Source: Obrimoposthia wandeli (Eukaryota). From it: a stretch of 64,000 nucleotides of DNA. The notes beneath the pieces were generated by a model. That model saw only the letters and a program-made list of their open reading frames with translations. It did not search any database and was not told where the DNA came from. The DNA is taken from assembly GCA_977020255.1 (NCBI GenBank), contig CDROCS010001542.1:124001-188000 (forward strand), given 5' to 3'. Positions within the stretch are counted from its first letter, which is position 1; each line of letters opens with the position of its first letter. Both the position numbers and the translations under genes were made by a program. Shown in pieces: positions 4,456 to 60,934 of this stretch.

Positions 4456-5007
4456 TGTTGGGGTTTCTATATGAAACTTATAGATCCTCTTGAATGCGGA
4501 GGGCCCCAACGTGAGTTCTATAGAAGCAGGTCTTAGGGATGGTTGTGGCCTACTTAATGTTATAGTTGCCTGTCTCAATGCTTATCTGAAGGTGTTTGTT
4601 TTTTGATGTCTCTTAATCTGAAGGGTTTAGAACAATGCTTTCTAATGTAGGAAATCGTTTATTGTTAACACACTAGACTAAAACAAAACAATACGTTTAC
4701 GTACGTATTTCTAAAAAGTTGTAGTAAAATTCCTAAGACTTCTGAAAGTCTCTACACCAGTGGGGATGAACCACGTATCGATTTTAGGTTTTAGGGTTGG
4801 TTGACGCTAGAGTCTTCACTCTAAAATTGCGGCAAGTTCGCAGAGTGTTGCTCTAAAGTATAAGTAGTTTGCCGAGCTGTTGCTCTAACACGGGATGAAG
4901 TTCAGTAGAGTTGCTGCTCTAATTTATAGAGTCTTTCCGAAATTTCACTTTAATTACTAGATAAAAGTTTCCTCAGTAATTTAACAAATTCCAATACAAA
5001 TGTTTTA

Positions 5008-5225
5008 GTAAAATTTACGCGGTATTTTAACAATTTTTAATTCAAAGGCTTTACTAAAATGTACTCGGTATTTTAACAATTTTTAATTCAAAGACTTTAC
5101 TAAAATGTACTCGGTATTTTAACAATTTTTAATTCAAAGGCTTTACTAAAATGTACTCAGTATCTCAACAATTCTTTAATTCAAAGGCTTTACTAAAATG
5201 TACTCAGTATCTCAACAATCTTTAC
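5008..5225. repeat. ~46-bp tandem array in 3' LTR (~5 copies; ~12 copies at 26128-26660 in 5' LTR)
   Basis: Unit aaaatgtactcggtattttaacaatttttaattcaaagactttact counted directly. Confidence 0.9.
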
Positions 5226-5483
5226 TCTTTGTCGTGTGCGGCTCACCTTCCAATCTGCAGACAATTCCGGAGTGCAAGATCCGTGCGATGCGCTGTCCGC
5301 TTGCTAGTTCGGTAACGCAGTAGAGAGTTGTCGGATAGATGGCTCGATCCGAATCCTTTCTAGTAATTCGAATAATTCTGTTGGAAATTTTCGTGATTTA
5401 CCTCCTAGTTTCTTCTGTCTTTCTTCTAACGACTCTCGAAATTGGCGAGAGGAAAACTGCATGATTGAACTGCAAGACTGGAA

Positions 5484-5750
5484 ACTGCTAGATTTTCTGG
5501 TTCTCTGCAACAATGATTTTTCTCGTCTCGAAACTTGTCTGATGGCGAACTGCTTCTCGGAATTGGTGAACTGCTAGACTGAAACTGCTAGATTTCCTGG
5601 TTCTCTGCAACAATGATTTCTTTCGGCTCGAACTTGTCTGATGGCGAACTGCTTCTCGGAATTGGTGAACTGCTAGACTGAAACTGCTAGATTTCCTGGT
5701 TCTCTGCAACAATGATTTCTTTCGGCTCGAACTTGTCTGATGGCGAACTG
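5484..5750. repeat. ~99-bp tandem array in 3' LTR (~3 copies; ~2 in 5' LTR at ~26921-27085)
   Basis: actgctagattt..tggttctctgcaacaatgattt recurs at 5484, 5584 and 5683. Confidence 0.85.
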
Positions 5751-6218
5751 CGAATAACGGTAAGTGTGTTTGGCTTTATATTAAATTACCTCGTCAGTTG
5801 TCTCCCGTCTTCAATCGGTTCTGCGACAATTCTCCTGATTGATATTCTTCTGCTTCGCACTGTGGATAGCGGTAATTTAATTTGTGTGTCTCGATAATTT
5901 TACCTTTTCAGTTGTCTCCTGATCTGGTTCTGCTGGCGCGACGGTGATGGCTCGATTACGATGACTGTTGCTGCTGTGTTGCTGCTGCGACACTGTGGGA
6001 ACTTGTTGCGGCGCTGTGGAAATCTGTCCAAATATGACAGTTATTCTACTAATGACTTTTACTTACTTTGATGCTGTTTGATTGCTTGGCTGCAGCTGTT
6101 TTGGCTCCCACGCTATTTGGTAATTTATTCTTCGTCAATTAATTGATTGATTCGTTTATTTCTCGTTTTCTTATTTCTTGATTAATTCTTTGGGGCCCTT
6201 TAATTTAATTTCAACCTC

Positions 6219-6337
6219 CTTATATATAACACATTGAACATGACCTTTCAAGGTCCTAATATTTAATTTGCCTTTTACTCTCATCAATTTATTTTAAATA
6301 TTATTTTCTATTTAGTTTTATAACCTTGCTTTCAAGG
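6219..6337 (-). promoter_or_regulatory. Putative LTR (U3) promoter: TATA-like box plus two conserved short palindromes
   Basis: Element-sense TATATAAG at 6219-6228, preceded by GGACCTTGAAAGGTCA (6241-6256) and CCTTGAAAGCAAGG (6324-6337); same order and similar spacing in LTRs at 29900-30035 and 59321-59440. Confidence 0.55.
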
Positions 6338-6622
6338 ATTTTATTTTTATATAAATTAGATTAATTATTTAAATTTTATCAAATCCTAATCCTAACATAT
6401 CTCGGGGGTTCTAAAAAAGTTACGTCCCCGGAACATATCGATTTTACTTTGATTTTAAGTTCATCCCTACTAATTCAAGCATTCAACTCAACAAACATGC
6501 CCAATATTTAACAAAAGTCGGTATAGATTTTTTAGGAAAAATTCAGACGCAGTCACAAATTATTCAAATTTGTATTCTATACACAATAAAAATGTAGGAC
6601 ACGGATAAAGGGATGGATTAGG

Positions 6623-7141
6623 TTAATCAATTATGTCCGGCATGTTCTGATCGTCCAGGAAGAGCATAACTTGCTCCAGGAGCAGGTCCGGAAAGGACGG
6701 AATGTCCCCGATGTATAAGGCCGTCTGCTGTTCAGGGTTCAGATGTGGGCTTTCGACAATTAAGTCAAAGTCTGAGCCGTACAGCCGATGATTTTCGATC
6801 CAGAACCGTCTGGCCTGCTGCCACGAGCGGCAGTCGCGGCTAGACCGCCACCGTTCGCGGATGGTAATTTGCACGTCTCGACGGCGCGCCAGGCATACGG
6901 AGCATCTACAGTGTTGTCCGCCAATGCAGGTTGCCAGAGAGCGATTGCCCTTTAGACGTCCTCGGCACATGAGCGCCCATTCTGAGAAGGGGGTGCGGCA
7001 CATTGGGCAAGTGATGTGCCCTGCAGATAGGGCTAGGGATCTGGCCCACTTGTACAGGCACGGCTCGTGGAATTTGTGACCACACCCGGCAGGTTTTGCC
7101 GAAGCTTGCCGGATGGTCTCGAGGCAGATTGAGCAAATCAT
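6623..7141 (-). CDS. Element-borne RING-H2 protein 3 (172 aa; putative E3 ligase)
   Basis: ATG at 7141 directly after gtgcag; C-x2-C...C-x-H-x2-H-x2-C...C-x2-C (CSIC..GCGHKFHEPC..CPMC); intact ORF. The ORF track's TTG start at 7186 is probably not the real start. Confidence 0.85.
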   Translation of the reverse strand: MICSICLETIRQASAKPAGCGHKFHEPCLYKWARSLALSAGHITCPMCRTPFSEWALMCRGRLKGNRSLATCIGGQHCRCSVCLARRRDVQITIRERWRSSRDCRSWQQARRFWIENHRLYGSDFDLIVESPHLNPEQQTALYIGDIPSFPDLLLEQVMLFLDDQNMPDIID

Positions 7142-7492
7142 CTGCACAATAATTACTTTTTTAACTTGGGGTTCAACTGGGTTCAATATTAACTTATGAA
7201 TTTAATATTTTAATTTTAATATCATAAGCCTTAGTATTCCAATCCTACCGAGTTCTGTCTTGATTTTAGGCATGTTTTTCACATTCATACTAAGCATAAA
7301 AATTGTCTTTTGGAGTTTCAGTATAATAATTACAATTTCAAATAAACAACATACATAAAAATGGTAACGGTCATTTTACAGTTTCACAAGATTGTACAAT
7401 TATGATTACAATTATGGTAGCTAATTTATCGCGTTATGCGATACACAGGGGTAGTTCATGATGTCACGTTTTAAGTCAAAAGTTACCTTCGG

Positions 7493-7798
7493 TTACTGCT
7501 GAGTGTTGGGCTGGCCTGTGCGTCGCTCCTCCACGCAGAACGAACACCAGCAGTCGCAGATGTTCTTCCAGCAGTGTACAATGGGTACCACTGCTTGGAG
7601 GCTGTCCCGGTTGTAGACATAGTGCACCGAGAAGGTTGCTCTGCACATCGGGCAGTTTGGGTAGTCGAGGGGATTGTTGTTGTTGGCGATTGGGATCCAC
7701 GTCTCGAGGCATTCGACGTGGAACTGGTGGTCGCAGTTGTTGGGTTTGGTGTAGAGGTCCACGATGTTCTCGTAGCAGATGGAACATTCTCCAGACAT
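7493..7798 (-). CDS. Element-borne RING-H2 protein 2 (101 aa)
   Basis: CSIC..NCDHQFHVEC..CPMC plus C-terminal CWKNICDCWCSFC; intact. Confidence 0.88.
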   Translation of the reverse strand: MSGECSICYENIVDLYTKPNNCDHQFHVECLETWIPIANNNNPLDYPNCPMCRATFSVHYVYNRDSLQAVVPIVHCWKNICDCWCSFCVEERRTGQPNTQQ

Positions 7799-7858
7799 TA
7801 CTGTGAGAGGGTTGGTGTTGAATTTGGGCTCGATTGAGGACTGGTGGTTGTGTGATGT

Positions 7859-8158
7859 TTACACAAAAGTGGTCGGATTTTGTCGTTCCGACAGACAGTA
7901 GTAACACCAACACTCTCTGAAATTCTTCCAACAGAATACCACCTGTACATCTACATCCTCTTGGTTGGGTTCTATCATGATGAACTTTGTGAATTGTCTT
8001 CTGCATACAGGGCAACGAGGGTATGTTGGATGTACGAATTCTCCATAAGTTCTGATCCATTTTGATAAACATTCCTCGTGATGTAAATGGTTGCAGTTTT
8101 CGGGTCTTGTTCTTCGTTCGGTTAGATCTTCCAAACATATTGGGCATTCTTCGGACAT
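7859..8158 (-). CDS. Element-borne RING-H2 protein 1 (99 aa), paralog of RING 2
   Basis: CPIC..NCNHLHHEEC..CPVC plus C-terminal CWKNFRECWCYYC; intact. Confidence 0.88.
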   Translation of the reverse strand: MSEECPICLEDLTERRTRPENCNHLHHEECLSKWIRTYGEFVHPTYPRCPVCRRQFTKFIMIEPNQEDVDVQVVFCWKNFRECWCYYCLSERQNPTTFV

Positions 8159-8282
8159 TCTAAATACATGATGACAATTAATTTCTACATGAGTTTTACA
8201 TATTTCTACTTATTTGTACAATCGCTTCTAGATATTTCTACATTTTTCACACACTGATTTATCTACAACCTCCTCTGATTTA

Positions 8283-11070
8283 TCATGTCTTGATGGGAGG
8301 TGGAGGTAAAGGTCGCAATTCCACTTCCTCCATTGTGGGTGTGTTACAGCATCGCAGTCCTTCGCATTTTCGTCGTATTCTTGGGCATACTTGACTGCCT
8401 TTCACGCACACGACTGTCAATAGGACCACTGCTGTTGACACTACTGCCATTCCAATTAGAGCATTGACCGCTGTTATTCCGCTGTCTGACGATTGATAAT
8501 CGTATTTCATTTTGTTGTTTGTCGGTTTGAATGACGTTTCCATTGGTGTTGATCGGTTTCCATGTATTATGTCCGATTTTCTAATAACTCGCGGATTTGG
8601 GTATTTTGTTTCCGGTCTAACAGGTATTATTAATTGAGATTGGAAATGATGTTTGGGATCTAGTGGAATCGTTCCTTTCACTCTTGTCCTCTTAATGATT
8701 GTACTTTGGTTTCTGGGATTGAGCTCTTTTCCTTTCACTTCTGCCTTTGTTATGACTACTTTTGGCTTCTCGGAATGGCGTTTACTTCCGTTTACCTTTG
8801 CCTTCTTTTTGATTATGATTTGCATTTTGGAATGACGTTTACTTCCTTTCACCTTTTCCTTTTTTATGATCTTGATTGGTTTTCCGGAAATGATTTTCCT
8901 GGGTTTAATACTTATACCGAGTCCACGGAATCGACGTGTCTGGTATCTTAGGGTTATGTAGAATATTTCACCTGTTATTACCATGATTATGGTAGTGGTC
9001 TCTCTAGCATTGCTGGGAATTCAGTTACATAGACATTCTGCATCAAAATGTGGTATTAACATTTGGTTTTGAATTTCGAATCTGATTCCACCATCTGGAT
9101 TGGGACACGCCACTGTTGCCTGGTCAGTTTCTAACAATCTGAAGAATATTCTAACGGAATTCCACACGGTTTTACGTCGTCTACCTGTGATCATAATCCT
9201 GTCGACAACTTTCCATATGCGCTCATCTCTAGGCAATATTAATGACTTTGTTCGGATACTTTGAATGATCCGTTTCCTCTTTGATATCGTTATCCGTAGG
9301 TATAACACCCTTTCATGATATAATAATATCAGTCGGTAGTAAGGTGTATGTTGGTCAATCTTTATTCTGACCTGTCAGATGACATACAATTTCTGATCGA
9401 CATTGTCGGTTGCTGACGTTTGTAGGTGAATGTCTACTACGTGATTTGTTTTTAGTAGAGGAATTTCTATGTATAACGCACGTATTGTATCTTGTCTCCA
9501 TTTACTGATCATGATCTCATAACCAGCCTCGGTCGTGGTGATTTGCATGATCAGCATGATTCCGATGATCGTCCGGTTCCGAATCTCAGGAACTTCTCTG
9601 GAATAACTCAAGTTACTCATATAGTACGGTCTTTCCTCGATATGTTCATATATCGTTGGCTGGTACTCTGGTGCTGGTTCATTTAGGAATGCTGGTCTTG
9701 GTATACTTGTGTTGAATTTTTGTAAATTCATTTGACCTGCTTGTCTTGCGAGATCATGACGTTTCTTTTTTGATCTCAACTCTATCTTTGTACAACAAAA
9801 CAAGATGAGTAATATTAATATTATAAATCCAATGATCAATGCCAGTATTGGATTAACCAATTCTAGAATACCATAACGTATTGCTGGTATCCCTTTACTC
9901 TTGATGGTTAATATTTTAAATTTATGTACACTTTGGTTGGACATGTCACTGAGAAGTACTATTTTAGTTTGTCCAAATGTGTAATCTTCACATGTGACAA
10001 CACTAACTCCATAATGTCCATTAAGTGTTTTCATTTCGGTCGCTGGGACTATACACATTCGTCCTGGACATCCTTTCACACACATGATCATCACGGCTCT
10101 ACTGTGAGACGTCTTGATTATTTCTAGGGTGTTGTCTAGATTTCTCAAATGTAAATTATATTCGGATAGTGTCATCAATTCAGCTTTACTGGTTGGAATG
10201 GCTTGTAGTACCAATCCAATTACTACTCCGTAGATCAATCCTTGTGCAACAGTGCACAGGGCCTTGATTGTCCTTTTGCAAAGGGTTTTGATTATCATTC
10301 GTTTGAGAGATATCTGTTTCTGGTTAGGTCGTTTTGTTGTCTGTCGTTGTTTTGACATTTCTTCGATTCCAGTTTTTCCGATAATCAACTGTACCTGTTT
10401 ACCTTGTATCATCAACTTTCCGAATCCATTTTTGGCGGACAAGCATGTTTTATGTCCTTCCATCGTTTCGATTATCACTCTCTTGCTTCCATACTCACGT
10501 GTTTTGATGACATCGCCGTTGAATATATACGTCGTACCTTTTGTATCTGCATCTTTTTTTATCTCCTTTACAATTCGTTTTCTTCGCATGCATCCGGCGA
10601 ACGTTGCTGATATTCGGTCAAGTGTGCGCTGTCGGTCAACTTCGTAGTCCATTCGGAATTGATTCAGTACTCTGTTTTGTGGATAAAATATCGCTTCATT
10701 CACTATGTTATCCTCTATACTTTCGTCTAGATACACAAGTACTTGGTTTGTTGGTCCATTGGGTCTCTTCATTTTCACAAACTGGAATCTTTTACTATCG
10801 GTTCTCATAGATGGGAGACATTTTCGGATAACCCACACATCAATTAGTCCTATCAACACTAATAGCATTATCAGTGCCGGTGTATTGTACTGTATGATGT
10901 AGTTGTTGATTTCTTTGAACCATGAACTATTTCCGTGGTTGGAGCCTATCTCTTGTGCTCCCGTTATCGGCATTAGACAACTTAACAAGCCTAGTGCTAG
11001 CAATCTTTGGTATTGATAGCTGGGCACTGTTGTTGTGGCTTCATTTGTTTCTCGTTGTTGCTTCCTCTTT
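8283..11070 (-). pseudogene. C-terminal membrane-protein cassette of polyprotein (repeated signal-peptide-like and TM segments), function unknown
   Basis: Hydrophobic segments RLLALGLLSCLMPITGA, ALIMLLVLIGLIDVWVI, LIYGVVIGLVLQAIPTSKA, ILALIIGFIILILLILFCC, IIGIMLIMQITTTEA, ALIGMAVVSTAVVLLTVVCV; ORFs 9375-11213, 9021-9308 and 8283-8984 are one frame separated by TGA codons. Confidence 0.65.
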
Positions 11071-11079
11071 TCGGAGTAT

Positions 11080-11480
11080 TTTTCTATTTCTCGAACGAGT
11101 AACGGTTTGAATTCCGTATCTGGTCTATTCTGTTTGATATAAACCATCGCTTCTTCTGGTGTATGACCATGGTACTCTACCAACAAGGATACACCTATAA
11201 TTGGAGCTAACATTGTACCTTTTTTCTGATATATCAGAACGCCGTTTCTTCTGTGACTTCGGCTTGGATGGTTTGAGTCAACTTCATCAGGTGTTGTTGT
11301 GCATCGTTTATCTCTCGATTGGAAGCATGTATGTATCGAGTTGTGTCATCTTCAGTATTTTGACACAGACTGATTATCTCATTTCCGACTTCAACAATAT
11401 TAATTACTCGGTTGATACTGTGGAACTTTAATCCAGCAGTATCTATATCTCCTGGATGACATAGAAATACTTTTGGCATT
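11080..11480 (-). pseudogene. Second, catalytically dead DSP-fold domain
   Basis: KITQIMPKVFLC...INRVINIV...(frameshift)GVLIYQKKGTMLAPIIGVSLL...TPEEAMVYIKQNRP parallels DSP1 but has YQKKGTML in place of HCQKGISR. Confidence 0.65.
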
Positions 11481-11599
11481 ATCTGCGTAATTTTGTCGAC
11501 TCCGGCTAAGAATAAACCGGTCAACAATAGTGCTTGGATGAAATTCTTTTCCTTTGGATCCTCAGGGATGTCGTCCATCCGTCTCTGTTCTTGCAACAG

Positions 11600-12010
11600 G
11601 AGTTGGTAATTTGACAATTGTCCCAAAAAATTAAGGTTTGGGTTCGCAATACTTCTTCTTTCCTGCAGGTATTTCAGCGCTTCTAGTACCTGCATTCGTC
11701 TAGTCTTTATTAGATACGCCAATACTAGGGTTGCTGATCGGGAGATTCCTTTCTGACAATGTACCAACACTTTTCCTTGGTTTTGGAGTTCTCTGTGAAG
11801 TATCTCGTTTGTTTCTACGAACCATTCGAGAAGATTAGCCTCCATTGAGGTTTTTACTCTTGATGTCATAGCTCTGATCGTCTGATATTGCGATTTGTGA
11901 TTCATTGTAACATTAATCACGTATGTTATCCTTTGTTCCAACAGTTTCTTTTCGTCTGTTGCGTCTTCCACATTTCCGAGGTATAACTTACCTGGAATGA
12001 TCTCACTCAT
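11600..12010 (-). CDS. Dual-specificity protein phosphatase domain (VH1/MKP-like), active-site motif intact
   Basis: SEIIPGKLYLGN...VLVHCQKGISRSATLVLAYL...EALKYLQERRSIANPNLNFLGQL; HCxxGxSRS at 11735-11761. Confidence 0.93.
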
Positions 12011-12370
12011 TGGTGGCATTAATTCTGACTCTTCAAGTTTTAGTCTTTCTAATCTCTTCTCTATTTGTTCGTCGATGATGGATAATTTCGCCAGTTTCTT
12101 TCCTCTCAGCATTCGTATTGCTGGAGAGATATTCATCTTTGTCTCTGATGTCTGTTCCTTTGTTGGTTCCTCTTCCGACACGGTCTCTTCTGCGGATTTA
12201 ATTCGTCTTTCTTGTATATTTTGTTTCACGAATTCTATGTTTTGTCTTTTTCTACTCTCTTTAGCGAATTCAACCTCCATGGTTCTTCCGAATCGTTCTA
12301 TTATGTTATCTTCGGATTCTGTTGATTCTGGATCGCTACTTCCAGGTTCGCTGTCTTGACTAGACTCGCT

Positions 12371-14734
12371 CTAAGGGTATTCTGGTATGTCTGTCTGAAC
12401 TGAAATTAATGAAGGGGTTAGAATAATTGAATTGACTGGTCCTGCGTATCTGTGAATCGGATACGGTATTACACTATCTTTAAGTATCTCAACTTGGAAC
12501 TGTGCTCCATAGCACATGACAATTGTTTCCAATTTACCCATGATGGACAATACATCAAAATAGGTGACATTCAGCTTAGATATCGGTGTTTTCGCATAAT
12601 TAATTAAATTGACTCGTATCTCGGTTGATGACGGCCATCGATTTTTTAGTAAAATTATAATTTCGTCGTTTATCGATGTAATCACACTTGGCGCGAATGA
12701 TACTATTTCGGCATGATATTTTGGTTGGATTGAGGTTGTCACTTGTTCTCGGATCATATTGATTCTTTGTGGTTTATTTTTAGCTTCCCACTTCCGGTAT
12801 CCGCTGTCAATGCGTAACTCTGCCGTTGCTTTAATGATTTTATTGTTTGTTACTTCCGGTTGGGTTGGCGAATGAAATCCTTCTATTACGCTCAACCTTA
12901 CAGATACTTCCGTTTGATCTGTGTTTAATTGGTGAGATTCCGGTATACTACATACAATGGTCTTTCCGTCAAAGAATTTGGTGTCCATCTGACAGATTAT
13001 CTTTTCAGTGTCAGCGTCAATTAAATGAACTCTCATGATATCTCTTTGCCCATGTGAATTACGTAATACCATTATCACATCGTGGTATTCTTGTTTGAGT
13101 CTTTTTGGTGTACCATGAAGTATGTGACCACCGGCCGGTTCTTTTTCTTCCTGACTGGCTAGTCCTGCTTCAGTACTGTCATAGTTCTGCCATGCAACTA
13201 TGTTTGGTGTCAATGTGATTTCGATTATCACTTTCTCAGTCGTAAATACATTGGAGTTTTGATGTAGTTCTGCGACTAATGTATTTCCGTCGTAGTATGA
13301 CACTCTAAGTTCGCACAGAAATTCGTTTGTTAGTGCATCTTTCACAATAACTTCTTTCGCCACATCTGTTGGTTGTGTTCTTTCGAAAACAACTATTATC
13401 TCTTCGTCTTCTTCTAATATCTCTTGTGGTGCGATGTGTCGGATTACTTCTTTTTCCTCTTGGTGTTTCATTCTGAGCATACCAATTCTCGCTGGTTTTT
13501 TCTTGCTACCACTTGTCATCATATTTATGTAGTTTCGATCACTTACCATTCGTGTCAGTTTAATGGTATTGGTATTCGGCTTCAACTTCTGTGATCTTAA
13601 CTCATATCGTGACGCGTTATCTTTATTTGGTACTAATTTACATCGATTTGCATGTACAATCATCGGTTCCTTGTTCCGATTCTCTTCGTTGATTACTTTC
13701 AAATTTGTTGAGGTTGTCTGGATCACCTTGTATCGTCCTTTGTATGGTCTATGAAGTTTAAACGATAGACCTGGTTCGATGACTGGATAAAATATAATCA
13801 CTTGATCTCCGACTCTAAATTCATGTGGTTTTGCCTTTTTGTCATATTGTTCCTTGTAACCTTCTTGATTGAATTTCAGTTTCAATCCTGCTTTAGTCCA
13901 AGCATCTTGCAATCTTTCTTTCATAACGACAATGTATTGTTCAGTTTCTAGATACTGAGATGTTGGTTCGGTCCACTCCAGATCCATTGGCATATTGTTC
14001 TGTCTGAGATACATCAGATAGAATGGTGTGTGACCCGTCGCCTCTCGAACTGAATTCCTGTAAGCATATAAACATGAAGGTAAATATTTATCCCAATCCT
14101 CTTGCTTGTCTGAGCAATAGGATTGTACCATCATACATAAAGTTTTATTAAACCTTTCTACTAGACCATCGGTTTGTGGGTGATATGGTGAAGTTTGTAA
14201 CTTCATGATTCCGAATATCTTCGATACTGCTTTTATTACTTCTCCGGTGAAGTTCTTACCTTGATCCGTTAACAACTTTCTAGGCACTCCGTATCGAAAT
14301 ATTATCTCTTCCACTAAGATCTGCGCTATTGTTTCAGCCTTCTGGTTTTGCATGGGATATGCTTCTACCCATCTCGTCATGTAGTCCGTAAATACTATGA
14401 TGTACTTGTTTCCTTTACTTGATTCTCTCAATGGTCCCAATATATATATCGCTGTGAATTCCATTGGTGCCAAGGGAACTGGCATTGGTTTCAGTAGAAC
14501 TTTAGTACGAGTTCCAGTGTCTTTTCTGGTTAAACATACTCTACATTGTTTACACCATTGTTTTATGTCGTCTTCCATACCATCCCAATGGTACTTCTCT
14601 TTGATTCTGGCTATTGTCTTTCGTCCTGACAGATGTCCTCCTAGTGTTCCATCGTGGTACTGGATCATCACTGCTGTTTTCAATGACTTCGGAATTACTA
14701 CCACTATCTTTCCGACATTGTTAACAATATACAA
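12371..14734 (-). pseudogene. pol: Integrase (HHCC, D-D35-E, GPY-like) plus long C-terminal extension
   Basis: H..GGH..GRKT...CKQC; catalytic D1 mutated to Y (AIYILGP, codon 14444-14446); LTDQGKNF; GLVERFNKTL; PYKGRY. Confidence 0.93.
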
Positions 14735-14755
14735 GATTCCTTCTTTTATCGAGTA

Positions 14756-16230
14756 TTATTTCGTCATTTCATCGTTTAGATCTCCTTTCACCAACAGTTC
14801 TTTGATTAGACTCAGTTCTTCATCTTCTTTCTGTTCTTTGATGATCTCTTTGTCTATTTTACCCGTCTTCAGCAAAATCGTTAATAGATTTGCTTCTCCT
14901 TTTTGGTCGTTGGTTTCATCTTGTTCTTCTTCTGGAATTATGTTTCCTTTCTCGTCTACATTTGTCAACCTCGACAAACAATCTGCGTTGCCATTCGACT
15001 TTCCGGTTCTATAACGGATTTCTAGGTCAAATTCGGCCAATTTTAGAAACCATCTGTTTAATCTACTCATCTCATCTCTATGTTTATACAAGAACTGTAG
15101 TGGTTTGTGATCTGTATATAGGAATACTTTTTGTCCTAGCAAGTAGTGTCTGTACTGTCTACATGAATACACTATGGCTAGACATTCCTTTTCAATAACA
15201 GAGTATCCTCTTTCGGCTCTGTTTAATCCTCTACTCGCATACGCGATGACGTGTTCTCTTCCTTCATCATCCTCTTGTCCCAATACTGCTCCTACAGCAT
15301 AGTTACTTGCATCTGTCATTAGTATGAATTGTCGGTTTATATCTGGAAACGCTAATATTGGTGCTTTTATCAGTCTTTCTTTTAAATGTTCGAACGCTTG
15401 TTGTGCTTCTTCTTCCCATATGAACTTCTCATCTTTCCTCGTCAACTTTCTCAACGGTGTTGCTATATCTGAAAAATGTTCTACAAATCGTCTATAATAG
15501 TTCGCAAGACCTAAAAAACTATGTATTTCCTTAACAGTCTTTGGCGCTAAATGCGCTTTTACTTTGTCGATCTTTGCTGGATCAGGTCGGATGCCTTCTT
15601 TCGATACTATATGTCCTAAATATGTTACTCGCTCTTTGGCCCATTCGCATTTTGTAGGTTTAACTTTTAATTTAGCGTTTTCCAGTCTTTTAAATACAAC
15701 TTCAAGATTTTTTAAATGTTCTTCGAACGTTTTAGAGAATATTATTATGTCATCGATATAAACCATCGTGTTTGCACACGATGCGAGTACAAAATTCATG
15801 CAACGCTGAAATGTTGCTGGAGCTCCTGTCAGTCCGAATGGCATTTTTTCGCATTCGTACAGTCCATCTCCGCAGGAAAAGGCTGTTTTGTGTTTGTCCT
15901 CTTCCTCTATCTCGATTTGCCAGTATCCACTCTGCAAATCCATTGTCGTAAAATAATCTGAATTACCTAATTTATCGAGCATCTCTTCGATTCTAGGTAA
16001 TGGATACACATCTTTTCTTGTGATCTTGTTCAGTTCTCTGAAATCTATACAAAATCCTTCTTTTTTACCAACACCACAGGTGCTGAGAATGGTGAAAAAC
16101 TCGGTCTAATTACTCCTGTTTTAGACATATCTTCAATCTGACTTTTTACTTCATCTTGTAACTGTAATGGTACTCGATATGGTCTTCTTCTGACTACTTT
16201 GTCTTCTGTCAGCGGTATTGTGTGTTTTAT
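14756..16230 (-). pseudogene. pol: Reverse transcriptase and RNase H (Ty3/Gypsy)
   Basis: RRPYRVP...SPFSAPVVLVKKKD / FCIDFRELN (small deletion between them), DLQSGYWQI, MPFGL, YIDD (15749-15760), TDASNYAVGAVL, EKECLAIV, TDHKPL. Confidence 0.96.
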
Positions 16231-16699
16231 TACAGGTGTTTCTCCTATGTCATACGGATTTTTTGCAATTACTTTTGGAAATTTATGTATTAGATCGAGT
16301 AATTGTTTCTTTTCTCTGGTTGTCAGTCTTTCTGATTGGATTACTATTTCTTCGTAATCATTCGTATCTTTATCGAGTTTCATAGCACACACGGTGGAAT
16401 TATCCATCTGTGCTATCTTTCCCAACCTCATTCCTCTGTATAACAGGATGTCGTTGTTGGTTGTGTTCATCAGCCTAACTGGTATTTTGTGGTTTTCAAT
16501 CAGACATACTGTACTCACAACTGGTAATTCGTATTTCTCTATGAAATCCCGTGATGGTTCGAACACAACTGGTCCTTTATCTTCTGATAATGTGTGACCT
16601 TGAATGAGAAATTGTGATCTTTTACCGATTTTTATAGGATTTTCTATAATTACATCAATTTGGTTTATTTGTCTATTTGATGTACTATCTTTCTATCTT

Positions 16700-17030
16700 G
16701 GATCTTGTAAATCGATACTTATCCCTTTGAGTTGTGATAGTACATCCATTCCTAAAATTGTAGGTTCAGGACATTCTTTCATGATTCTAACTGGTATAGT
16801 GATCGTATTACGTCCAATTATAGATGTACATGGTAATATTCCCGTCACTTTTACAGGGTCTCCATTGACCGATACTAAGAATTCATCTGGTTCTGCCATT
16901 GTTCGTTTCTGTTCCTCTGTCAAACAATCTTCACTTACTATCGAAGCTACACCACCTGTATCAATTAAGGCTTTTACTCTTAAATTATTTACTCTAATGA
17001 TAGCTGCTGGTCGCTGTGCTCCATTTATAT
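16700..17030 (-). pseudogene. Retropepsin-type aspartic protease domain 2 (canonical position before RT)
   Basis: RVKALIDTGGVASIVS (D codon at 16962)...SVNGDPVKVTG...ILGMDVL. Confidence 0.88.
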
Positions 17031-17139
17031 TTCCCATGTGGTATATTGTATTTATCGAATTATTAAACTCTGTCGGTCCACTTCCTTTGTTTGGATAGTG
17101 AAATCTAATATTTCTCACTTGTCGATCTATTATCCTTCT

Positions 17140-18100
17140 ACAAATCGGACATGATACCATTTCCTTCGCACATCTCCGACATGTTCTTACATGTCCGCAT
17201 GGTAAAAAGGCAACTTATATTTTGTTGACCATGCAGACTGCGCATTCCGGATCTTCCAGTACGTATTCTAGTTCGTTTATGTACTCTTTCTCTTTTGTTT
17301 CAATTGTACTGTCATCTTTATCTCTCAATAATTCAAAAATTAATCCGTATCCGTTTCGCATAGTTTTTATTTTTAATTCTACCAAATCTCTGATTTTTTC
17401 TGCTTCCTACGGATATAGTCTTCTCACGAATGACACTACCGGTGTGTCTTGTTGATCCAAAATATCTTTCCGTGTGATTTGGTATTCGATTACACATTCG
17501 GTTTTCTGTTCTTTTTGCTTTATTTTGTTTTTAAAAATACAAAATTCATGATGTAAAGTTTTCTTAGGTAACTCAAGAGTATATCTGTCGATAATTCGTT
17601 CTTTTTTACACTTGTGGCATTTAATTACGTATTTACCATCCTTTTTTATAGCAAAAAGTCCCTTTTTTGCCAATTTTTTAAGTCTTGGGTCTTCGAAAGT
17701 TACTTCTCGATATTGTTCGTCACATTCGTTCACTTCTCGCATAACTTCGAATATGTCTTCAATTCGGCTATTTGTTATTACTCTACCTGTTATTAGAGCT
17801 GATTCTCCTTTTGGAATCCCGTCACTGTAATCGAAATCGGGTGCTTTTCCCGTTTGGATTTCTGGTACGTTTGAAGTTTTCAGTTTCAAAAGAAATGGAC
17901 AATTTGGTGCATCTCTTTTATGACGTCTCATTGGGTTTTCATTCTTCTCCCACTTTCTAAAATTTACTCTTCACCATACGCATCGTACTACTTCCTCATG
18001 ACCATAACTACTTGTCGCGTTTAACATTTCTAAACCTGATCTTGCCATTTTACGTGCCATTCCTTTTGAATAGTACAGTTCTAGTGATCTTCGTCTATTT
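17140..18100 (-). pseudogene. Inhibitor-of-apoptosis module: BIR1 (17890-18100), degenerate BIR2 (17535-17715), C3HC4 RING (17140-17244)
   Basis: Repaired BIR1 RCVW[C]KSKFRKWEKNENPMRRHKRDAPNCPFL fits C-x2-C-x16-H-x6-C exactly (TGA at the 2nd Cys, +1 T); BIR2 REVTF..KLAKKGLF..CHKC..HHEFC; RING CAVCMVNKI*VAFLPCGHVRTCRRCAKEMVSCPICR is IAP-type. Confidence 0.88.
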
Positions 18101-18339
18101 TTCTCGATTCTCAAGGGATCTTTTTCTGACAGATTCACATATGTTATTTTCCTCCTCGTCGTAGCTTGTGGTCCGGAGTTTACATCTTTGTAGTGAAGAA
18201 TCGACTTTACTAGCGCTTCCTGTTTCCTATCTTGGTACGGATTTCCCATACGGAACATAGTGTATTTTTCCTTTTCGACTATAGGTCCTCTCAACATTTT
18301 TAACTCTCTCGCTGAACTGTCGTTCTTAAAACTCTTGTT

Positions 18340-18660
18340 GTTTGGTAATATAATTATTCCTTCAAACATCCGTATTACATCCATCCCAATCATGACTGGA
18401 CTACCACAATCTGTGAATATTCTAGCATTTAACTGCAATGCTCTTCCATCGATATTTAACGAACATTTCAGTGTTCCTTCTGACACTACATCTGTACCAT
18501 TCACGTTAACAAATGTCTGTTTTCTAGGACATACTTCTCTTAATTCTTTTGATGACAAGATTTCTTTACTCAGTACTGATACTGCAGATCCAGTATCGAC
18601 TTCGGCAAGATATTCTCTTCTGTTCAGTGTTACTGCTACTTGTGGTGGAGCATTTGGATT
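18340..18660 (-). pseudogene. Retropepsin-type aspartic protease domain 1 (extra copy)
   Basis: EYLAEVDTGSAVSVLS (D codon at 18597)...NVNGTDVVSEG...VMIGMDVI. Confidence 0.87.
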
Positions 18661-18984
18661 CTCATTGGATATCCTAGACTTTAGAATTCTTCTGGAATTA
18701 TCTTTTTTGTCTTTTTCCTCTGCTTGTGGGATCTCACTGTAGTTCACTTTAGGCCATCTTATCATTAAAATGCCTCTCTTGAACTTTTCCTTCTCTTCCT
18801 TTAGTTCCTTCATTGGATATAGGTTTAGCGCCACTTCTTCCTTGTCTGGTAACGGAATCTTTGGTTTTCCTGGTATCTTTGCATATTCTCCTGGGTTATC
18901 ATTATCGTCGTCGTTGTCGTCTCGATAGTTTCTTGGTTCTCGCATCATGGTTCTCGTTTGATGTTGCTTCTTCTTGAGGGCTCG

Positions 18985-20866
18985 CTACTCGTTCTCGTGA
19001 TGATGGTGCATTAGATATTTTGCTAAAAATGGAAAACATCCAATTATAAGTTGCCAGGTGATTCCGGTTATCCTGTATAAACTATACGTAGACAACACCT
19101 GGGCTATAATTACCTGCACAAATTTAATTATAACATAAATACCTATGATACCCGAAAATAATTGTCCTAAAACAAGGAATTTCCCCCACATCTTTCTAAG
19201 TGTCTGATGTGCTGCTTCCTTGAAATGACTTGGCGATAATAACATATCAAAATTCGCATATCTAGCTCCTGGCGGTAATGCTCGATGTACCATCTCCGTA
19301 AGTACTCTGGCCCTTTTTACTGGAAACATTATTTCGTTCCAGGCCGCTTTTAAGTCTTTTTCATTGTACAAACCTGCGTTCTCCATATTTTCTACCGCTT
19401 CGAATTTCATTTTTCCTTTAAGATTCGTCATTTTTATCATCTCTGGAGTTTTCGTTGGCTTTCGGTCAGGTAGCGTTATTCAAAGATCATTCGTCATCTG
19501 ATATTCAGGTGCCATTATATTAGAGCAGCTGATTTCTTTAGTTGGAGTGTCTTTTGGAAGTATCATTCTCGTGATTGGTTCAACAAAGAGTTATTTTAAA
19601 TTATGCGTTACTGCCAATTCACTCGTACATCGGTTTGTTGTTCTCAACTGTACTTCTACTTTATTACACTTGTAAGTATACAATACTTCTCCCATGGTTT
19701 TAGCAAATACTCCTTCATCTAAGGGTAATAATGGTGCTACCATGTCTGGATTTGTAATAGCTAATGCTAACTTTGTTCTTACGATCTCTTTGTTTAGCTG
19801 GCAATCTCTCTCAATCATCATCCGATATAACTGTTCCATTTGCATCAATCCTTTATGATAATAAAAATAAATTTTATTATTAAAATACGTATGTAGCTGC
19901 ATATCTCTAGGTTTTAGCTTGGTTTCTGCCAATGCTATTAATTCTCTGGACAAAACTATTCCAGGATAGTTTGTAGTACTAACAGTCATTCCGCATAGCG
20001 CTTTATTTCTCTTTTTAATAAATATCAATCCTTCTTCTGTTGATGTTGCCATTAACAGTGTAGGTGTCGCCGTCATAGGAATTGATCTTGTTTCATTTTG
20101 AAATCCTTCTCCAACTTTATTATACAGGAACCCTTCTCCATCTTTATTATACAGGAACCCTTTTATTTTATTAAAGCTAATTTCTTTCAAAAATACTAAA
20201 GAGAATTGTTTCGGATTCACGTGATACACAATTGTGGATTCGCCTGTAAAACAAGATGCATCTGTCATTCTACATTCCGGATACTTCATCATTCGTTGTG
20301 TCTTTTTATCAAAATTGGCGGTCCATGTTTGTAATTCGATTTTATAAGTTACGTCCATTACTAACTCTGTTACTTTGGTACCACGCACGTTTTTTTGTTC
20401 CTCCGTCACAAGATCCATCAGGCCATCGTTGTCCTACTCTCGTGACTGTTTCGTATCGTCTCACCCCAACTTTTACATCAGGTTTGTAATTCTTGTCTAT
20501 TTATATTGTTCCTGTTCGAAATGCGTCTTCGCAATCTCTCGGAAAAACCTCATGTGGTTTGTACGGTGTGGTAGGTGTGATTTCCGACATAAAACTTCTA
20601 TGGCCACAATAGAATTCGTGATAACTTGAATGGACTGAACATTCTTTCACTTCTACTTGTATTTTATCAACATCCTGATACACAAAGTAGTTTTCAATAC
20701 CTTTAACTTCTAATTTTGACGGTTGTGATTCTGGACAGTCTTCGCTGTCAAGCAGTGAATACTTTTGTCCCATCTTTGGTATGCTACAGTCGTATGCTAT
20801 CAACCCTGATGCCTGTTGCATTCCCATAAACATTACTAGCATCATCATCATCATCGTTGTGGACAT
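18985..20866 (-). pseudogene. env: Env-like glycoprotein resembling chuvirus/Jingchuvirales (class III) fusion proteins
   Basis: Internal signal MSTTMMMMMLVMFMGMQQASG then LIAYDC (20786-20803), DGSCDG, DCQLNKEI..TKLALA..NPD, MGEVLYTYKC..VEV..R.T..C..EL.V, and C-terminal WGKFLVLGQLFSGIIGIYVIIK..TM; these match remembered chuviral G motifs. Confidence 0.8.
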
Positions 20867-20964
20867 ATTTGGTTGATTGTTTCTTTCTTTCGGACGGTAT
20901 TGTTTATTTTCCCTTTGACGATTCTCGTGACATTGCTCGTCATCGTCTTCGTTCATTTCCACAA

Positions 20965-21360
20965 TGGTTTTAGCGTAGTCACTTAATTTTGCCCAACCTC
21001 CGTTTTCGTCAATTCGTCTCTGCAATACATTCTCGATCAAATACATCGCTTCATTTATTCCTTGTTTGACTTCGTGAGGTTGGCTCGTTCGTTCCGTCAA
21101 TTTGAAACATAGATATGTGATCGCTGTAATTAACTTTTTATTTGTAGTCTGGTTTCCACATAATCTCGCTAAAACTTCACCATCGTAAAATCTATCTATT
21201 GATGCATGGTATACATGATTCGCAGTCATTCTCTTCACTGCAGACATTTGTGATCTGACTGCTTTAGTCAAATTGTCTGTTATATCGGTTGTTTCATCTT
21301 TGTACATTTTGAACAACTTCGGCTTCACTTGCCTGAGAATTCCCGATAGTATATCTTTAC
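20965..21360 (-). CDS. Bcl-2-like helical domain inside the Gag-Env ORF
   Basis: ILRQVKPKLFKMYKDETTDITDNL (BH3/alpha2-3-like), VLARLCGNQTTNKKLITAITY (divergent BH1), LQRRIDENGGWAKL (BH2-like; ENGGW at 20993-21007). Confidence 0.65.
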
Positions 21361-21511
21361 TACTTGGAGCTTCCGAATTCATATCACCTCTGATATCTTC
21401 ATTTCGCTCCGTACTATACTGCTCTAATGACGCTGCTAACTGCCCAATGCTTAGGTGTCTCTCCTCATCAGTCTGAGGTGTAGTTAGAACATTTCGTAAT
21501 ATACTTCCGTC

Positions 21512-21539
21512 CTTTCTAGGTCTTCCAGGTCCTCTTCGA
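21512..21539 (-). other. AT-hook-like motif RRGPGRPRK
   Basis: GRP core flanked by basic residues in ORF 20501-24163. Confidence 0.6.
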
Positions 21540-22044
21540 AAATACTGATACTCAGTTTGATTCTCTCCTGGATCATATGGTTCACCATTATACTGTATCT
21601 CTTGACTTGGTCCTTCTTCATGGCCAATCTCTTCGTTTTGTCGCATCATCTGCTCTGCTTGTCTATCTCTGTATGCAGCATGCCAAATTGGTGAATCCAA
21701 ATCTACAATCTCGGAGATTTCGTCTTCTCCTACTAGTTGGGTTACGTTTTCGTTTTGTCTCACTTGGTTAGCTATATCCGTGACTTCATCTTGTCTGGTT
21801 TGAATTATCTCTGGTTCTGGTGGTACTTCGACCACCGGAGTCGTCAACTCATTTTCTAGTTCCACGTCTTGTAATTCAGCTACGTACGGTTCTGGTGTGG
21901 ATGTCTTGTTCCAAGCTTCAGCTACATCATTATCTCCACTTTCGCTTGAACTGTCTAAAATTTCTATAGGCGTTTTTATCATTTCCAACGCAGAGTTTAA
22001 TATCTCAGTTAATCCTTCATTATCTACTAACTCTTGACGTTCTA

Positions 22045-22270
22045 CAGTAATGACATCAATTTTTTCCTCTAATTCATTTCCTATAGGATATCCGCACTCG
22101 ACTGGTACGTCTTCGTCATCTAGTGATCTTCCTTTATAATGGAATAACATATTCATTCCGTCTATTTCAAGTTTCTCGGCCAACTTTTTCCGAATAGTTT
22201 TCATTGTTTGGTATACGTTAAGTTTTTCATGTATGATCTGTCCGAAAATTAATCGAATCGAAATTTTCAT
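22045..22270 (-). CDS. SUMO/ubiquitin-like domain inside the Gag ORF
   Basis: MKISIRLIFGQ...TMKTIRKKLAEKLEIDGMNMLFHYKGRSLDDEDVPVECG...IDVIT resembles SUMO/Ubl beta-grasp (F.F.G..L.D.DTP...IDV); no C-terminal GG. Confidence 0.6.
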
Positions 22271-22799
22271 CGTTCCTTTTTGGTTTGATCTCTGTATGTA
22301 ACGACCATATCCCTTCAATAATCCTCGTGATACTTCTTTGTAACCCAAGTTATCATGACTATGTTTAACCAATTCTGCTTGCACTTCTTCCAATCTATGC
22401 ACTTTAATTGTTTGCAATTTGGCCAAAACTTCTGGAGCTTCACTCGTTTCATCTAACGGTTGATTCAACGTCTTCTTAGCTTCACTAATTATTTTTTTCA
22501 CATTTTCCATACTCGTAGCATTTCTTGCGACTTCTATGTGATCAGTCATAGGTTGTGCGTTACACGTTTTCTCTATTGGTGTCTCATACGCTTCTAGTAT
22601 TCGGTTCATTAAATCATTCATCTCTTCTCTCGAATGTAGACTTTTTTCGTGTTTCGACAACGTAGATGAATTCGCCATCTTTGTGTGTGGGGAATCTTTA
22701 ATTATTCCCAACATTCGTTCAAATTTACTATCACTATCTTCAAAATCTATTTCGCGTCGAAGCTCGGTCTCGCGATTCCTATCGCTGTCATCGTTTACG

Positions 22800-24822
22800 T
22801 AACTAAAATTTCCTTTCGGTTTCGGCGAACTCTCATGACTATTTGTCTTGTCAATATTATTATTATTATATCTACCGGAATTATTATATCTCTCAGCTCC
22901 TTGCTGTCCTACGTAATTATTGTATCTCTCAGCTCCTTGCTGTCTGTCTGTATAGTTATTGTATCTACCTGGTGACTGTTGTCTATCTGTATACTGATTA
23001 TTCGGTCTCCGTTGCTGCGGAGTATATCCACCACCTCTATTCCATGGCGGGGGTGAATTATATCCTCTATAATTATTTCCAAAATTATTATTACCGAAAT
23101 TATTATTTCCAAATCTGTTAGTTCCGAACTCTTTACTTCTCGTACAGTCTCTCGAATAGTGACCCATTTGTTTACACGTATAACACATTATTCTCCCTCG
23201 AATATCGATCTTATTCTGTTCATCTTCGGACTGCACTCGACGACTATTCTGTCTATTGTCGTAGCGTCCTCTAAAATCATTTCTTCGGAAGTTCGATTCA
23301 AAACCACTTCCTCGATTATTGAATCTTCCGTCACTACTTCCTGTATTATTTCCAAATCGAGAGTCACTTCGCTCTCCTCTGTTTGCGTTGTAATTCCTAT
23401 CGTCCCCTCTCCAAGGTTGGCGATTTCCTGAATTATCTCTACTAAATCTATTCCTGGAATCATCTCTATTTCTATTCCACGAATCATTACTATTTCTACC
23501 TCTTGAATCATCTCGATTCCTGTTCCAAGACTCACTATTATTTCTACCTCTCGAATCATCTCGATTCCTATTTCGGAAATTATCTCTGTTTCCGTTACTG
23601 GATTCATCTCCTTTTTCAAACTTATTTTGTCCATAATTTCGATTCTGAAAATTACTCGGTTCTGTTTTATTCACAAATACCTTTGTCTTATCGTCATCAC
23701 CTGCGGTCATTGCGTAAATTGCCAATGCTGCGTTATTTTTTATATTTTTCTCAATTTCTCTCGCCTTTCGTACGGCGTTATCAAAATCGTTTGTGTCCGA
23801 TACTGCCAATAACACTTTAATATCTTTTTTCAGTCCTCCTCTAAATATGTCTAACAAAACTTCTGCCATTTCATTTTGGTTCCGGTTATTTTCCGCTGCT
23901 TGTGCTTCTGGAGCTACAGGGTTACCTTCTAGATTTATCATTATTCTTCTTGGGTACGCTCTTGCGGCTAAGGTTCTCAGAACATACGCGTATTCATTCA
24001 CGCCTTCGTCATGTTTCTGTTTCCGTTCTCTCATGATTCGCTTGTTTACTTTTGCAAAGTCTCCCAATACCAATTTTCCAATAAAAGCATTTTCCAACGT
24101 TTCCCAATTAAAACGTTCTGCTTCTGTCAAATGTTTATACACTTCAAGTGCTAATCCGGTCAAATGTGCCTGTACACGGACACATTTTCTCTATCGTTCC
24201 ATCCTTGAACATCTGCGCAACTCGAATATTCTGCGAGGAAGTCACAAATACTTTCCTCATCTCCTTTAAACTTTGTAATCTGCAATGATCCCGAAAAGTT
24301 GGGTCTCAACGTCGCATTTAAGGCTAGTGCCAACTGTTCTGCATTCATGTCACCTACATTATTTCCTGCATTGTTATCTGCTTGAGCTCCTGGTTGAGCC
24401 ATATTTTCAACTATATCCTCCTCAACTATTTCTTCAATATTAATCACTTGAACTTCCTCAACCGCTACTGGATTGTCAATTTCAATTTCTTCTGGGTTTT
24501 GAACTTCAATAATATCAATTTCTTCTGGGTTTTGAACTTCAATAATATCAATTTCTTTTGGGTTTATTTCACCAAACAACTCAGTCAGATCAAAACTGTC
24601 GGTTGAAACTGCTGATTGATTTACGTCTCTTTCTGATACGTTTTCTTCGATTCTAGTCTTTTCTATTACTTTGTTATCTGTTTGGGAAACCTGTTCAATT
24701 CGGTTAAATTTATTATTATTTATCTCTTCCTGGGGAATCTGACTTTGTCTTGTAGTATTAAACGCGGGTCCTTTTCTATTATCCGTTGTCTTATCAATTA
24801 TGTATTCGTTTACGATATCAAT
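22800..24822 (-). pseudogene. gag: Gag (acidic leader, capsid-like region, R/D/N-rich nucleocapsid with one CCHC knuckle)
   Basis: First ATG at 24402 (MAQPG..); QITKFKGDEESICDFL..Y...GWNDRE; one-A deletion near 24190; CYTCKQMGHYSRDC at 23144-23185. Confidence 0.9.
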
Positions 24823-24921
24823 TTACTTATTACTTTATCTTATTTCACAATTCTTATTTTACGATTTCTTATATCAATTTAATTAGTTCGAGGAGGCGTC
24901 TCTAACCTATTCAATTAATTA

Positions 24922-25350
24922 CCTCGAGTAACAATCCACTCGATTCGCAAACTTTATTCAAACTACTTAATTCGAGGAACAAATCTATTCGATTTTACAA
25001 CTTTATCAAATTACTGAATCCGAGGAACAAATCCACTCGATTTTACAAACTTTATCAATTTACTGAACTCGAGGAACAAATCTACTCGATTTTACAAACT
25101 TTATCAAATTACTTAATTCGAGGAACAAATCTACTCGATTCTCAAACTTTATCAAATTACTTAATTCGAGGAACAAATCTACTCGATTTTACAAACTTTA
25201 TCAATTTACAAAACTCGAGGAACAAATCCACTCGATTTTACAAACTTTATCAATTTACTGAACTCGAGGAACAAATCTACTCGATTTTACAAACTTTATC
25301 AAATTACTTAATTCGAGGAACAAATCCACTCGATTCTCAAAACTTATCAA
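24922..25350 (-). repeat. 48-49-bp tandem array (~9 copies) in the 5' leader, each with a TCGAG-N11-CTCGA inverted repeat
   Basis: cgagg recurs at 25021, 25070, 25119, 25167, 25216, 25265, 25314; homologous array at 60935-61390. Confidence 0.9.
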
Positions 25351-25547
25351 TTATCTTATCTCAATTTGCTGATATCTTCTTCTTCTGAAACTTATTCTCA
25401 ATTTGCTTATATTTTCTTCTTCTGAAACTTATTCTCAATTTGCTTATATTTTCTTCTTCTGAAACTTATTCTCAATTTGCTTATATCTTCTGTAAGTTAT
25501 TCTCAATTTGCTTATATTCTATGGGAAGTCGCTGTGTCCGACGAGCT

Positions 25548-25566
25548 ATCCTCACTCGGGGCACAA
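25548..25566 (-). other. Primer-binding site, probably elongator tRNA-Met
   Basis: Element-sense TTGTGCCCCGAGTGAGGAT, 8 nt after the LTR; complement matches the remembered animal tRNA-Met(e) 3' end ATCCTCACACGGGGCACCA; here TGG is mutated to TTG. Confidence 0.7.
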
Positions 25567-25574
25567 ATTTAATA

Positions 25575-60802: not shown

Positions 60803-60810
60803 TATTAAAT

Positions 60811-60829
60811 TGGTGCCCAGAGTGAGGAT
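60811..60829 (+). other. Primer-binding site (elongator tRNA-Met-like)
   Basis: TGGTGCCCAGAGTGAGGAT after the same 8-nt spacer TATTAAAT. Confidence 0.72.
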
Positions 60830-60934
60830 AGCTCGTCGGACACAGCGACTTCACGTAGAATAAGAAAGCAAATTGAGAATAAGTTACAGAAGAAGAAGAT
60901 ATAAGCAAATTGAGATAAAAGAATTGAATAAGTT

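Follow-up and report, generated by a model that had tools for sequence, protein, structure and literature searches.

Giant gypsy elements of flatworms that carry apoptosis and ubiquitin domains are already known: the Burro elements of planarians are described as giant gypsy-like LTR retrotransposons (PMC6431247), and a RING-BIR protein of Burro1 is reported, second-hand, to protect stem cells (PMC13465017). In their available parts the Burro accounts are domain lists and not transcript maps, and the available text of two further papers (PMC13238120 and PMC8532177) adds nothing on splicing. At issue is by what route giant retrotransposons manage to express genes located 16 kb downstream of the promoter. 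Literature searches, outside which most subscription papers fell, returned no matching description of LTR retrotransposons whose accessory ORFs are spliced or whose copies have lost an intron; nor, in a search that missed the primary Burro papers, was there any account of such elements having a triple-RING cassette that is separate and spliced, or LTR leaders that contain introns. The element described here lies in a window of 64,000 nt (the whole stretch of DNA that was analysed), and genomic copies of its family prove directly that internal splicing occurs, with exact junctions.

Layout of the element and its three RING genes

The element, at 27722-4456 on the minus strand, is a 23.3-kb Ty3/gypsy LTR retrotransposon with paired LTRs and gag-PR-RT-RH-IN order (Table 1). 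Its best RT-RH relatives share 55% identity or less, and in layout and domains it resembles a Burro-like gypsy retrotransposon, Burro being compared by its description. Immediately next to the 5' LTR is the end of a different LTR (27723-28062), which suggests that one element was inserted in tandem with, or nested in, another. A second copy, diverged, shorter, with a different LTR and 88% alike in gag, occupies 59260-64000 on the plus strand and runs on into the neighboring loci L104-L105; its RING2 has no start codon and its RING3 contains stops. Transposase pieces between 223-nt inverted repeats at 46037-47627 are presumably Tc1/mariner-like. Exact start-site patterns in the assembly number 4,153 (RING1), 6,033 (RING2), and 953 (RING3, which varies more), counts that include haplotype twins. 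Part of the cassette has been amplified in tandem at G000:C82:76681-80301, where the RING2 donor pattern is repeated five times at intervals of ~900 nt, and long (ATG)n runs have expanded inside the polyprotein of one copy (L050) and at the RING3 start of another (L244, G000:C2759).

Table 1. Features of the element; positions are those of the window.
Feature	Position	Strand	Description
5' LTR	25575..27722	-	first ~13 nt missing; 95-99% block identity to 3' LTR
Leader (inferred R/U5 plus the stretch up to gag)	24403..27540	-	0 ATG in 3,138 nt
Three putative 42-44-nt mini-introns, 5' LTR	27404-27362, 27241-27198, 27127-27086	-	donor-acceptor pairs
Giant polyprotein	8283..24402	-	~14 pieces in this copy; Pfam and frames of other copies
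Candidate acceptor 1	AG 8161-8160, within 8160..8175	-	lies past the fourth and last upstream ATG of the spacer
RING1, 99 aa	7859..8158	-	RING-H2 plus C-terminal Cys motif; Pfam zf-RING_2; omega 0.41
RING1-RING2 spacer, 60 nt	7799..7858	-	C/A-rich; ends in candidate acceptor 2, AG 7802-7801
RING2, 101 aa	7493..7798	-	Pfam zf-RING_2; omega 0.04 (biased low)
345-nt GT..AG intron	7142..7486	-	exactly absent in 5 copies, L188-L192
RING3, 172 aa	6623..7141	-	diverged among subfamilies; Pfam zf-RING_2; omega 0.14 (aa 1-95), 0.26 (aa 96-172)
3' LTR, TGTT...AACA	4456..6397	-	comparison with 5' LTR
Same three putative mini-introns, 3' LTR	6066-6024, 5903-5860, 5789-5748	-	

The polyprotein is organized, by Pfam, in the order gag/CCHC, ubiquitin-like, Bcl-2-like, Monjiviricetes-type fusion protein, protease, BIR, and a second protease, followed by RT, RNase H, integrase, a dual-specificity phosphatase, and a hydrophobic C-terminal region. 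The fusion glycoprotein (PF24664) is in three pieces in the 20504-18988 region, in frame between gag and pol. The BIR (E 1.7e-7, above the cut-off) is part of a region that two aspartyl-protease domains flank (all within 18948-16693), and the phosphatase together with a long hydrophobic stretch of ~57-nt repeat units (12280-8283) makes up the polyprotein C terminus after integrase. The ubiquitin (E 0.003) and Bcl-2 (E 0.065) matches are both weak and below the cut-off, and Pfam profiles gave no match for MATH, ankyrin, or dUTPase-like motifs in the pieces scanned. The frame breaks fall at different places among the five copies compared, whereas the last frame ends at the 8283 stop in all five; their frames overlap continuously from gag to that stop over ~5,370 codons (~5,400 aa). 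Gag to stop thus reads as one polyprotein, leaving RING1-3 as the sole ORFs that need a separate route of expression.

All three RING genes have the C-x-H-x2-H-x2-C core of RING-H2 proteins (C3H2C3 ligand pattern), and RING2 and RING3 are paralogues of RING1, with 39% and 30% identity. Omega, calculated from variants common to at least 3 of 79 copies, is below 1 for all three ORFs, and these coding-sequence comparisons show purifying selection on each of them; the RING2 value is biased low because 46 of the 79 copies were picked on RING2 protein identity. The preliminary description had noted that the RING ORFs are intact where the polyprotein is broken, and so they are in this copy, but this is an effect of length: RING ORFs break at ~0.5-0.9 per kb and this copy's polyprotein ~13 times in 16.5 kb, which are similar rates. 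Among 29 copies picked on DNA likeness, RING1 is intact in 22, RING2 in 24, RING3 in 23, and all three in 15.

Each RING start follows an AG by 0-2 nt, and the minus-strand contexts first reported are exact: catgtatttag/aATG (ATG at 8158), ccctctcacag/taATG (7798), and ttattgtgcag/ATG (7141). It had been argued that three of three is unlikely by chance. AG lies 0-2 nt upstream of 112 (26%) of the element's 436 sense ATGs, and YAG of 45, so the probability is 0.017 (AG) or 0.001 (YAG) if the three events are independent, which they may not be because the genes are paralogous.

The RING2-RING3 intron in spliced genomic copies

The intron between RING2 and RING3 has its donor (gaag/gtaact) 6 nt past the RING2 stop, a distance kept in 69/69 copies measured, and its acceptor (gtgcag/) abuts the RING3 ATG; nine ATGs lie inside. 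A genome-wide pattern finds five copies that lack exactly 7486-7142 as against 1,467 exact unspliced donors (5/1,472 spliced), the first two having been found among 37 copies fetched for diversity. L188 and L191 are near-identical twins, and the five represent four independent lineages. Apart from these twins, the closest relative of each intron-less copy among the 79 is an intron-bearing one (RING3 identity 0.92-0.98), and more distant from it is the next intron-less one (0.75-0.87); RING3 identity between intron-less lineages is 72-87%, indicating four separate losses. Only 2 nt (AG) are common to both sides of the junction, and longer microhomologies within 50 nt of both ends (35 four-mers, nine five-mers, and one six-mer, as overlapping counts) went unused. 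The simplest cause of these losses would be reverse transcription of spliced genomic RNA. As read from these genomic copies, the exact absence of a GT..AG interval shows that the AG before RING3 functions in cis as a 3' splice site with a local donor, one that the preliminary description did not propose, and that this donor at the rear of RING2, neither an LTR donor nor a spliced leader (SL), has been joined to the RING3 acceptor in a small share of packaged RNAs. Splice sites can thereby be read from intron-less copies of a high-copy element, without RNA.

The intron-bearing copies keep an invariant acceptor CAG (71/71) and donor GT (73/73), whereas in the last 80 intron columns the invariant share is just 31%, and both sites are retained in the diverged neighboring element (L105, the plus-strand copy). 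RING3 starts read CAG/ATG at 953 sites and have another base at -3 at 19; these 19 comprise four intron-less copies, 11 that on examination are local changes, and four with TAG outside the examined set. Removal of the intron drops the nine ATGs, sets the RING3 ATG 6 nt past the RING2 stop, and brings RING1, RING2, and RING3 into one frame. In four sequencing runs over 4400-9400 (type unstated, and silent on expression), no splice was seen among 15 of 61 joints. A subfamily (L011-L013, L015, and L016) has an extra in-frame ATG inside the intron, 9 nt upstream of the acceptor-proximal RING3 ATG. Several other variants were considered and rejected: large internal deletions in C745, C1768, C552, and C1817 are not GT..AG; AAG/ATG starts at C487, C2285, C2397, C4730, and C5311 are local changes; and neither the ATG/ATG RING3 starts (C565, C2759) nor the ATG/CA RING2 starts (C70, C463) are SL joins.

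A spliced or trans-spliced accessory operon had been proposed for all three genes, and the use of the RING3 AG, in five copies and four lineages, bears this out for one of them; for the other two, use of the AG is plausible at RING1 and doubtful at RING2, with no spliced copy among the variants examined. A host acceptor matrix built from 34 host sites, placed by hand from DNA alone, ranks the RING3 acceptor 17th, the RING1 candidate 54th, and the RING2 candidate 1,116th among the element's 1,938 AGs. The RING1 score (2.5) is inside the host range and makes use of this acceptor plausible, whereas that of RING2 (-7.2) is below all 34 training sites (minimum -4.5), which makes its use doubtful. 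No spliced copy was seen among 10 RING1 variants examined, with 10 further variant sites outside the sample, or at RING2 among 41 examined of 56 variant sites, which are 38 local changes, two deletions with filler, and one break into unrelated DNA. The two deletions (L217, L220) remove ~104 nt before RING2 and are not GT-bounded, and the break (L237), from the RING2 exon start into unrelated sequence, is within chance, so none of these is taken for a spliced copy. AAG is the reading at 15/56 RING2 variant sites, 13 of which differ by a point change or a small indel of similar form. Conservation across copies, proposed as a check on the acceptors, is telling at RING3, where CAG is invariant in the aligned intron-bearing copies, and less so at the other two: AG is kept before RING1 in 75/76 and before RING2 in 79/79 aligned copies, but this is weak evidence because 50-57% of spacer columns are invariant anyway.

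A proposed LTR leader and the expression of the RING genes

The leader is free of ATGs, where 44-62 are expected and the opposite strand has 32; for contrast, there are four in the spacer before RING1 and nine in the RING2-RING3 intron. Transcription probably starts in the 5' LTR, to judge by a TATA-like box near 27570. Both LTRs contain three putative mini-introns, the acceptor of the third reading TG in the 5' LTR and AG in the 3' LTR, and their size is close to that of minimal host introns (37-48 nt, read by eye in CCT genes). Across 26 LTR types there are 54 donor-acceptor pairs of 40-47 nt in sense and five in antisense; shuffles give 12 (at most 23 among 200) and other length bins 10-29, and the ATG counts of these types are 40 versus 298. 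LTR interiors are hypervariable, with 27 types among 35 LTRs that are 48-76% identical to those of this element. In the LTRs at 27540-25575 and 6200-4456 and in L002-L030, L036, L088, L094, and L243, this hypervariability accompanies internal genes that are 90-99% alike, and these LTRs keep two to four mini-introns and are nearly ATG-free; the pattern may be the outcome of evading host silencing while RNA processing imposes a fixed constraint.

One genomic site (G000:C1397:210319) is an exact exon-exon join of the third mini-intron type (one match to a 30-letter pattern, and 1/23 non-G matches), showing, on this single genomic join, that an LTR mini-intron has been spliced out at least once; 99 of the 100 listed of 281 third-type sites are unspliced, and ~21 LTR matches carry other sequence after the exon of the third donor. 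For the last U5 donor no spliced form was seen, and only two point mutants were found. Mini-introns and an ATG-free leader imply that the LTR supplies donors and that any RING ATG spliced onto it becomes the first AUG. The suggestion of alternative splicing from an LTR donor is thus supported indirectly by the AUG-free leader, the mini-introns, and one LTR join, although the one RING donor found is local, and no leader-RING junction was seen in any genomic evidence examined.

The reading we favor, at somewhat better than even confidence, is that RING1-3 are expressed by alternative cis-splicing from the LTR leader, and the data suggest expression by splicing much like that of complex retroviruses. 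Transcripts would start in the 5' LTR, and AUG-free leader exons would be joined to one acceptor at a time, placing a RING ATG first for the scanning ribosome. RING2, alone or with RING1, would be an internal exon, opened by an acceptor upstream and closed by the strong donor at 7486, and its message would be expected to escape junction-dependent decay, the stop lying merely 6 nt before the junction. The full-length RNA would stay nearly all unspliced and go on to packaging. The primer-binding site is presumably just inside the 5' LTR, downstream of the LTR donors, so leader-RING messages would lose it and leave no genomic copies, whereas the RING2-RING3 splice would keep it and be copied; absence of leader-RING joins from DNA is therefore expected under leader and SL models alike. 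Exon definition from the donor at 7486 could prop up the weak RING2 acceptor, as in the available account of HIV-1 A1/A2 (PMC7912102). The RING proteins are probably small E3 ubiquitin ligases that would act against host defense or cell-death factors, judging from the RING, BIR, and Bcl-2-like domains.

The strongest alternative, possible though clearly less probable, is a single polycistronic RNA with the leader joined at RING1 and the 345-nt intron removed, ribosomes reinitiating first at RING2, beyond the 60-nt spacer, and then at RING3, 6 nt past the RING2 stop, with the RING2 AG incidental; in a variant, stop readthrough would give tandem RING fusions, since the spliced RING1-3 share one frame. 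The poor RING2 acceptor score suits this scheme, as does the RING1-RING2 spacer, which is 60 nt in 69/70 copies measured, unstructured (-1.1 kcal/mol), ATG-free, and in frame with both genes; the spacer ahead of RING1, by contrast, is of variable length. The 60-nt spacer, however, gives no clear sign of being constrained as coding sequence in the RING frame (two synonymous and four nonsynonymous shared variants), and the AG 2 nt before the RING2 ATG is present in every aligned copy. Downstream, the fixed stop-to-donor distance and a splice that discards nine ATGs and leaves the RING3 ATG just past a stop are also in keeping with reinitiation. LINE-1 ORF2 reinitiation over a spacer of ~63 nt is a precedent, although reinitiation after a 99-codon ORF is usually inefficient.

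SL trans-splicing, raised earlier on condition that the host is a flatworm, depends on the host. The codon usage of a multi-copy COX1 (AAA mostly at Asn, AAG at Lys, and ATA at Ile/Val) is that of mitochondrial table 9, and LTRs of the family are found in loci of host CCT genes and beside this COX1; the assembly also has many bacterial contigs, several nuclear copies of host mtDNA, and a second animal's mitochondrial contig (C5352, COX1). An SL-RNA-like gene (L137/L179, G000:C1071 near 1393400), single copy by the pattern used, has a leader ending TTGCATG, a GTAAG donor, the Sm-like AATTTTTGA, and a 3' hairpin; it was picked by eye from 100 listed of the 137 matches to a search pattern that its control outnumbered (280); L138 and L139, candidates as well, were set aside for having no clear Sm site. 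Six loci (L177, L180, L181, L184, L187, and L178) carry the same leader ending at its terminal codon and then nonintron sequence, and all but the last are one repeat family, with the leader carried as if retrocopied. These leader-ended loci suggest that the host uses a spliced leader, and the COX1 code and SL-RNA-like gene make it probably a flatworm with trans-splicing. CTAGAA upstream of host CCT starts was rejected as a trans-splice acceptor, as it sits in GAA-NN-TTC repeats. Such repeats are typical of heat-shock elements.

That trans-splicing resolves the cassette as an operon, at acceptors common with cis-splicing and most plausibly at RING3, is nonetheless quite unlikely. Beyond the SL-RNA-like gene and the leader-ended loci, it draws on the use of common acceptors for cis and trans splicing by parasitic flatworms (available text of PMC12582326) and on the SL AUG, which in flatworms is able to initiate (available text of PMC9851317) and here is in frame with RING3, and RING3 only. 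At RING1 this AUG would instead open an overlapping 227-codon frame, whose omega of 1.8-2.3 rules it out as a protein under selection, and at RING2 the result would be AUG-stop or an ORF in the wrong frame. ATTTAG, TCACAG, and GTGCAG, the sequences at the three sites, all depart from UUNYAG (PMC12582326) and YTNCAG (PMC8629364), the motifs given in the available parts of those papers, from which the host's motif may differ. The SL proposal is therefore upheld in its premise, an apparent flatworm host with an SL RNA, whereas motif and frame disfavor it at RING1 and RING2. No SL-RING join was seen among 11 SL-pattern matches or the variant starts examined, and an AUG-free, intron-bearing leader points to cis use. 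It is unlikely, too, that the cassette uses both routes, cis-splicing from the AUG-free multi-exon LTR leader and the host SL at the common RING3 acceptor; if it did, this would be a retroelement resolving its own operon with host trans-splicing and a retrovirus-like program evolved independently.

Cryptic splicing could also account for the 5/1,472 spliced copies, but the view that the RING2-RING3 splice is merely cryptic and the genes come from internal promoters in AT-rich spacers or by another route, with an AG-ATG pattern owed in part to descent from one ancestral gene and in part to chance (the genes being paralogous and AG so common before ATGs), is highly improbable, given four independent losses at one junction, a CAG that is invariant amid varying columns, splice sites kept in the plus-strand copy, and no room in 60 nt for a promoter outside RING1.

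Comparison with known systems

Cis-splicing from the LTR leader, the favored reading, has its closest parallel in HIV-1 vif/vpr-type mRNAs, for which the available text (PMC7912102) describes one leader and several acceptors just before accessory starts, weak acceptors paired with downstream donors, and a genomic RNA that is mostly unspliced, all as proposed here. The two differ in that this element is of Ty3/gypsy type with its env inside the polyprotein, and the leader-acceptor joins are inferred; no Rev-like exporter was identified in the element. The family points to a Ty3/gypsy element with an accessory-gene program resembling the one that complex retroviruses have. Flatworm SL operons, in the available parts of the reports on Macrostomum lignano (PMC8629364) and parasitic flatworms (PMC12582326), share the close codirectional genes and the AG before the start, and their hosts resemble this one in its candidate for an AUG-ending SL RNA. 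The RING cassette departs from them in acceptors that are off the published motif, an SL AUG out of frame in two of three genes, and a cis donor at the third. Stand-alone RINGs of ~100 aa occur in large DNA viruses, and the look-alike clusters in the ESM Atlas are mostly viral (Nucleocytoviricota, Preplasmiviricota), with best feature scores of 0.92-0.94 that are leads only, without alignment; a word-index search among proteins of 54-174 aa returned no RING1 homologue.

In overall design the element is closest to Burro as described in the available text (PMC6431247), for both are giant, number thousands of copies, and have accessory ORFs and one polyprotein of ~5,000 aa, which includes a BIR and, set in frame between gag and protease, a fusion protein of mononegavirus type; perhaps also in common are ubiquitin-like and Bcl-2-like regions (weak Pfam matches here) and a flatworm host (probable here). 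It differs from those descriptions in having three RING-H2 genes downstream, each separate, with an intron that is demonstrated, in a dual-specificity phosphatase and hydrophobic tail after integrase, in having two protease domains, in giving no MATH or ankyrin match in the pieces scanned with Pfam, and in its intron-bearing hypervariable LTRs. In Burro1, by a second-hand account available in part (PMC13465017), the RING is joined with a BIR in the B-IAP region, unlike the separate RINGs here. With at least ~6,000 RING2 sites, a ubiquitin-ligase cassette under selection could matter to host cell death or defense, as the Burro1 IAP is reported, second-hand, to do.
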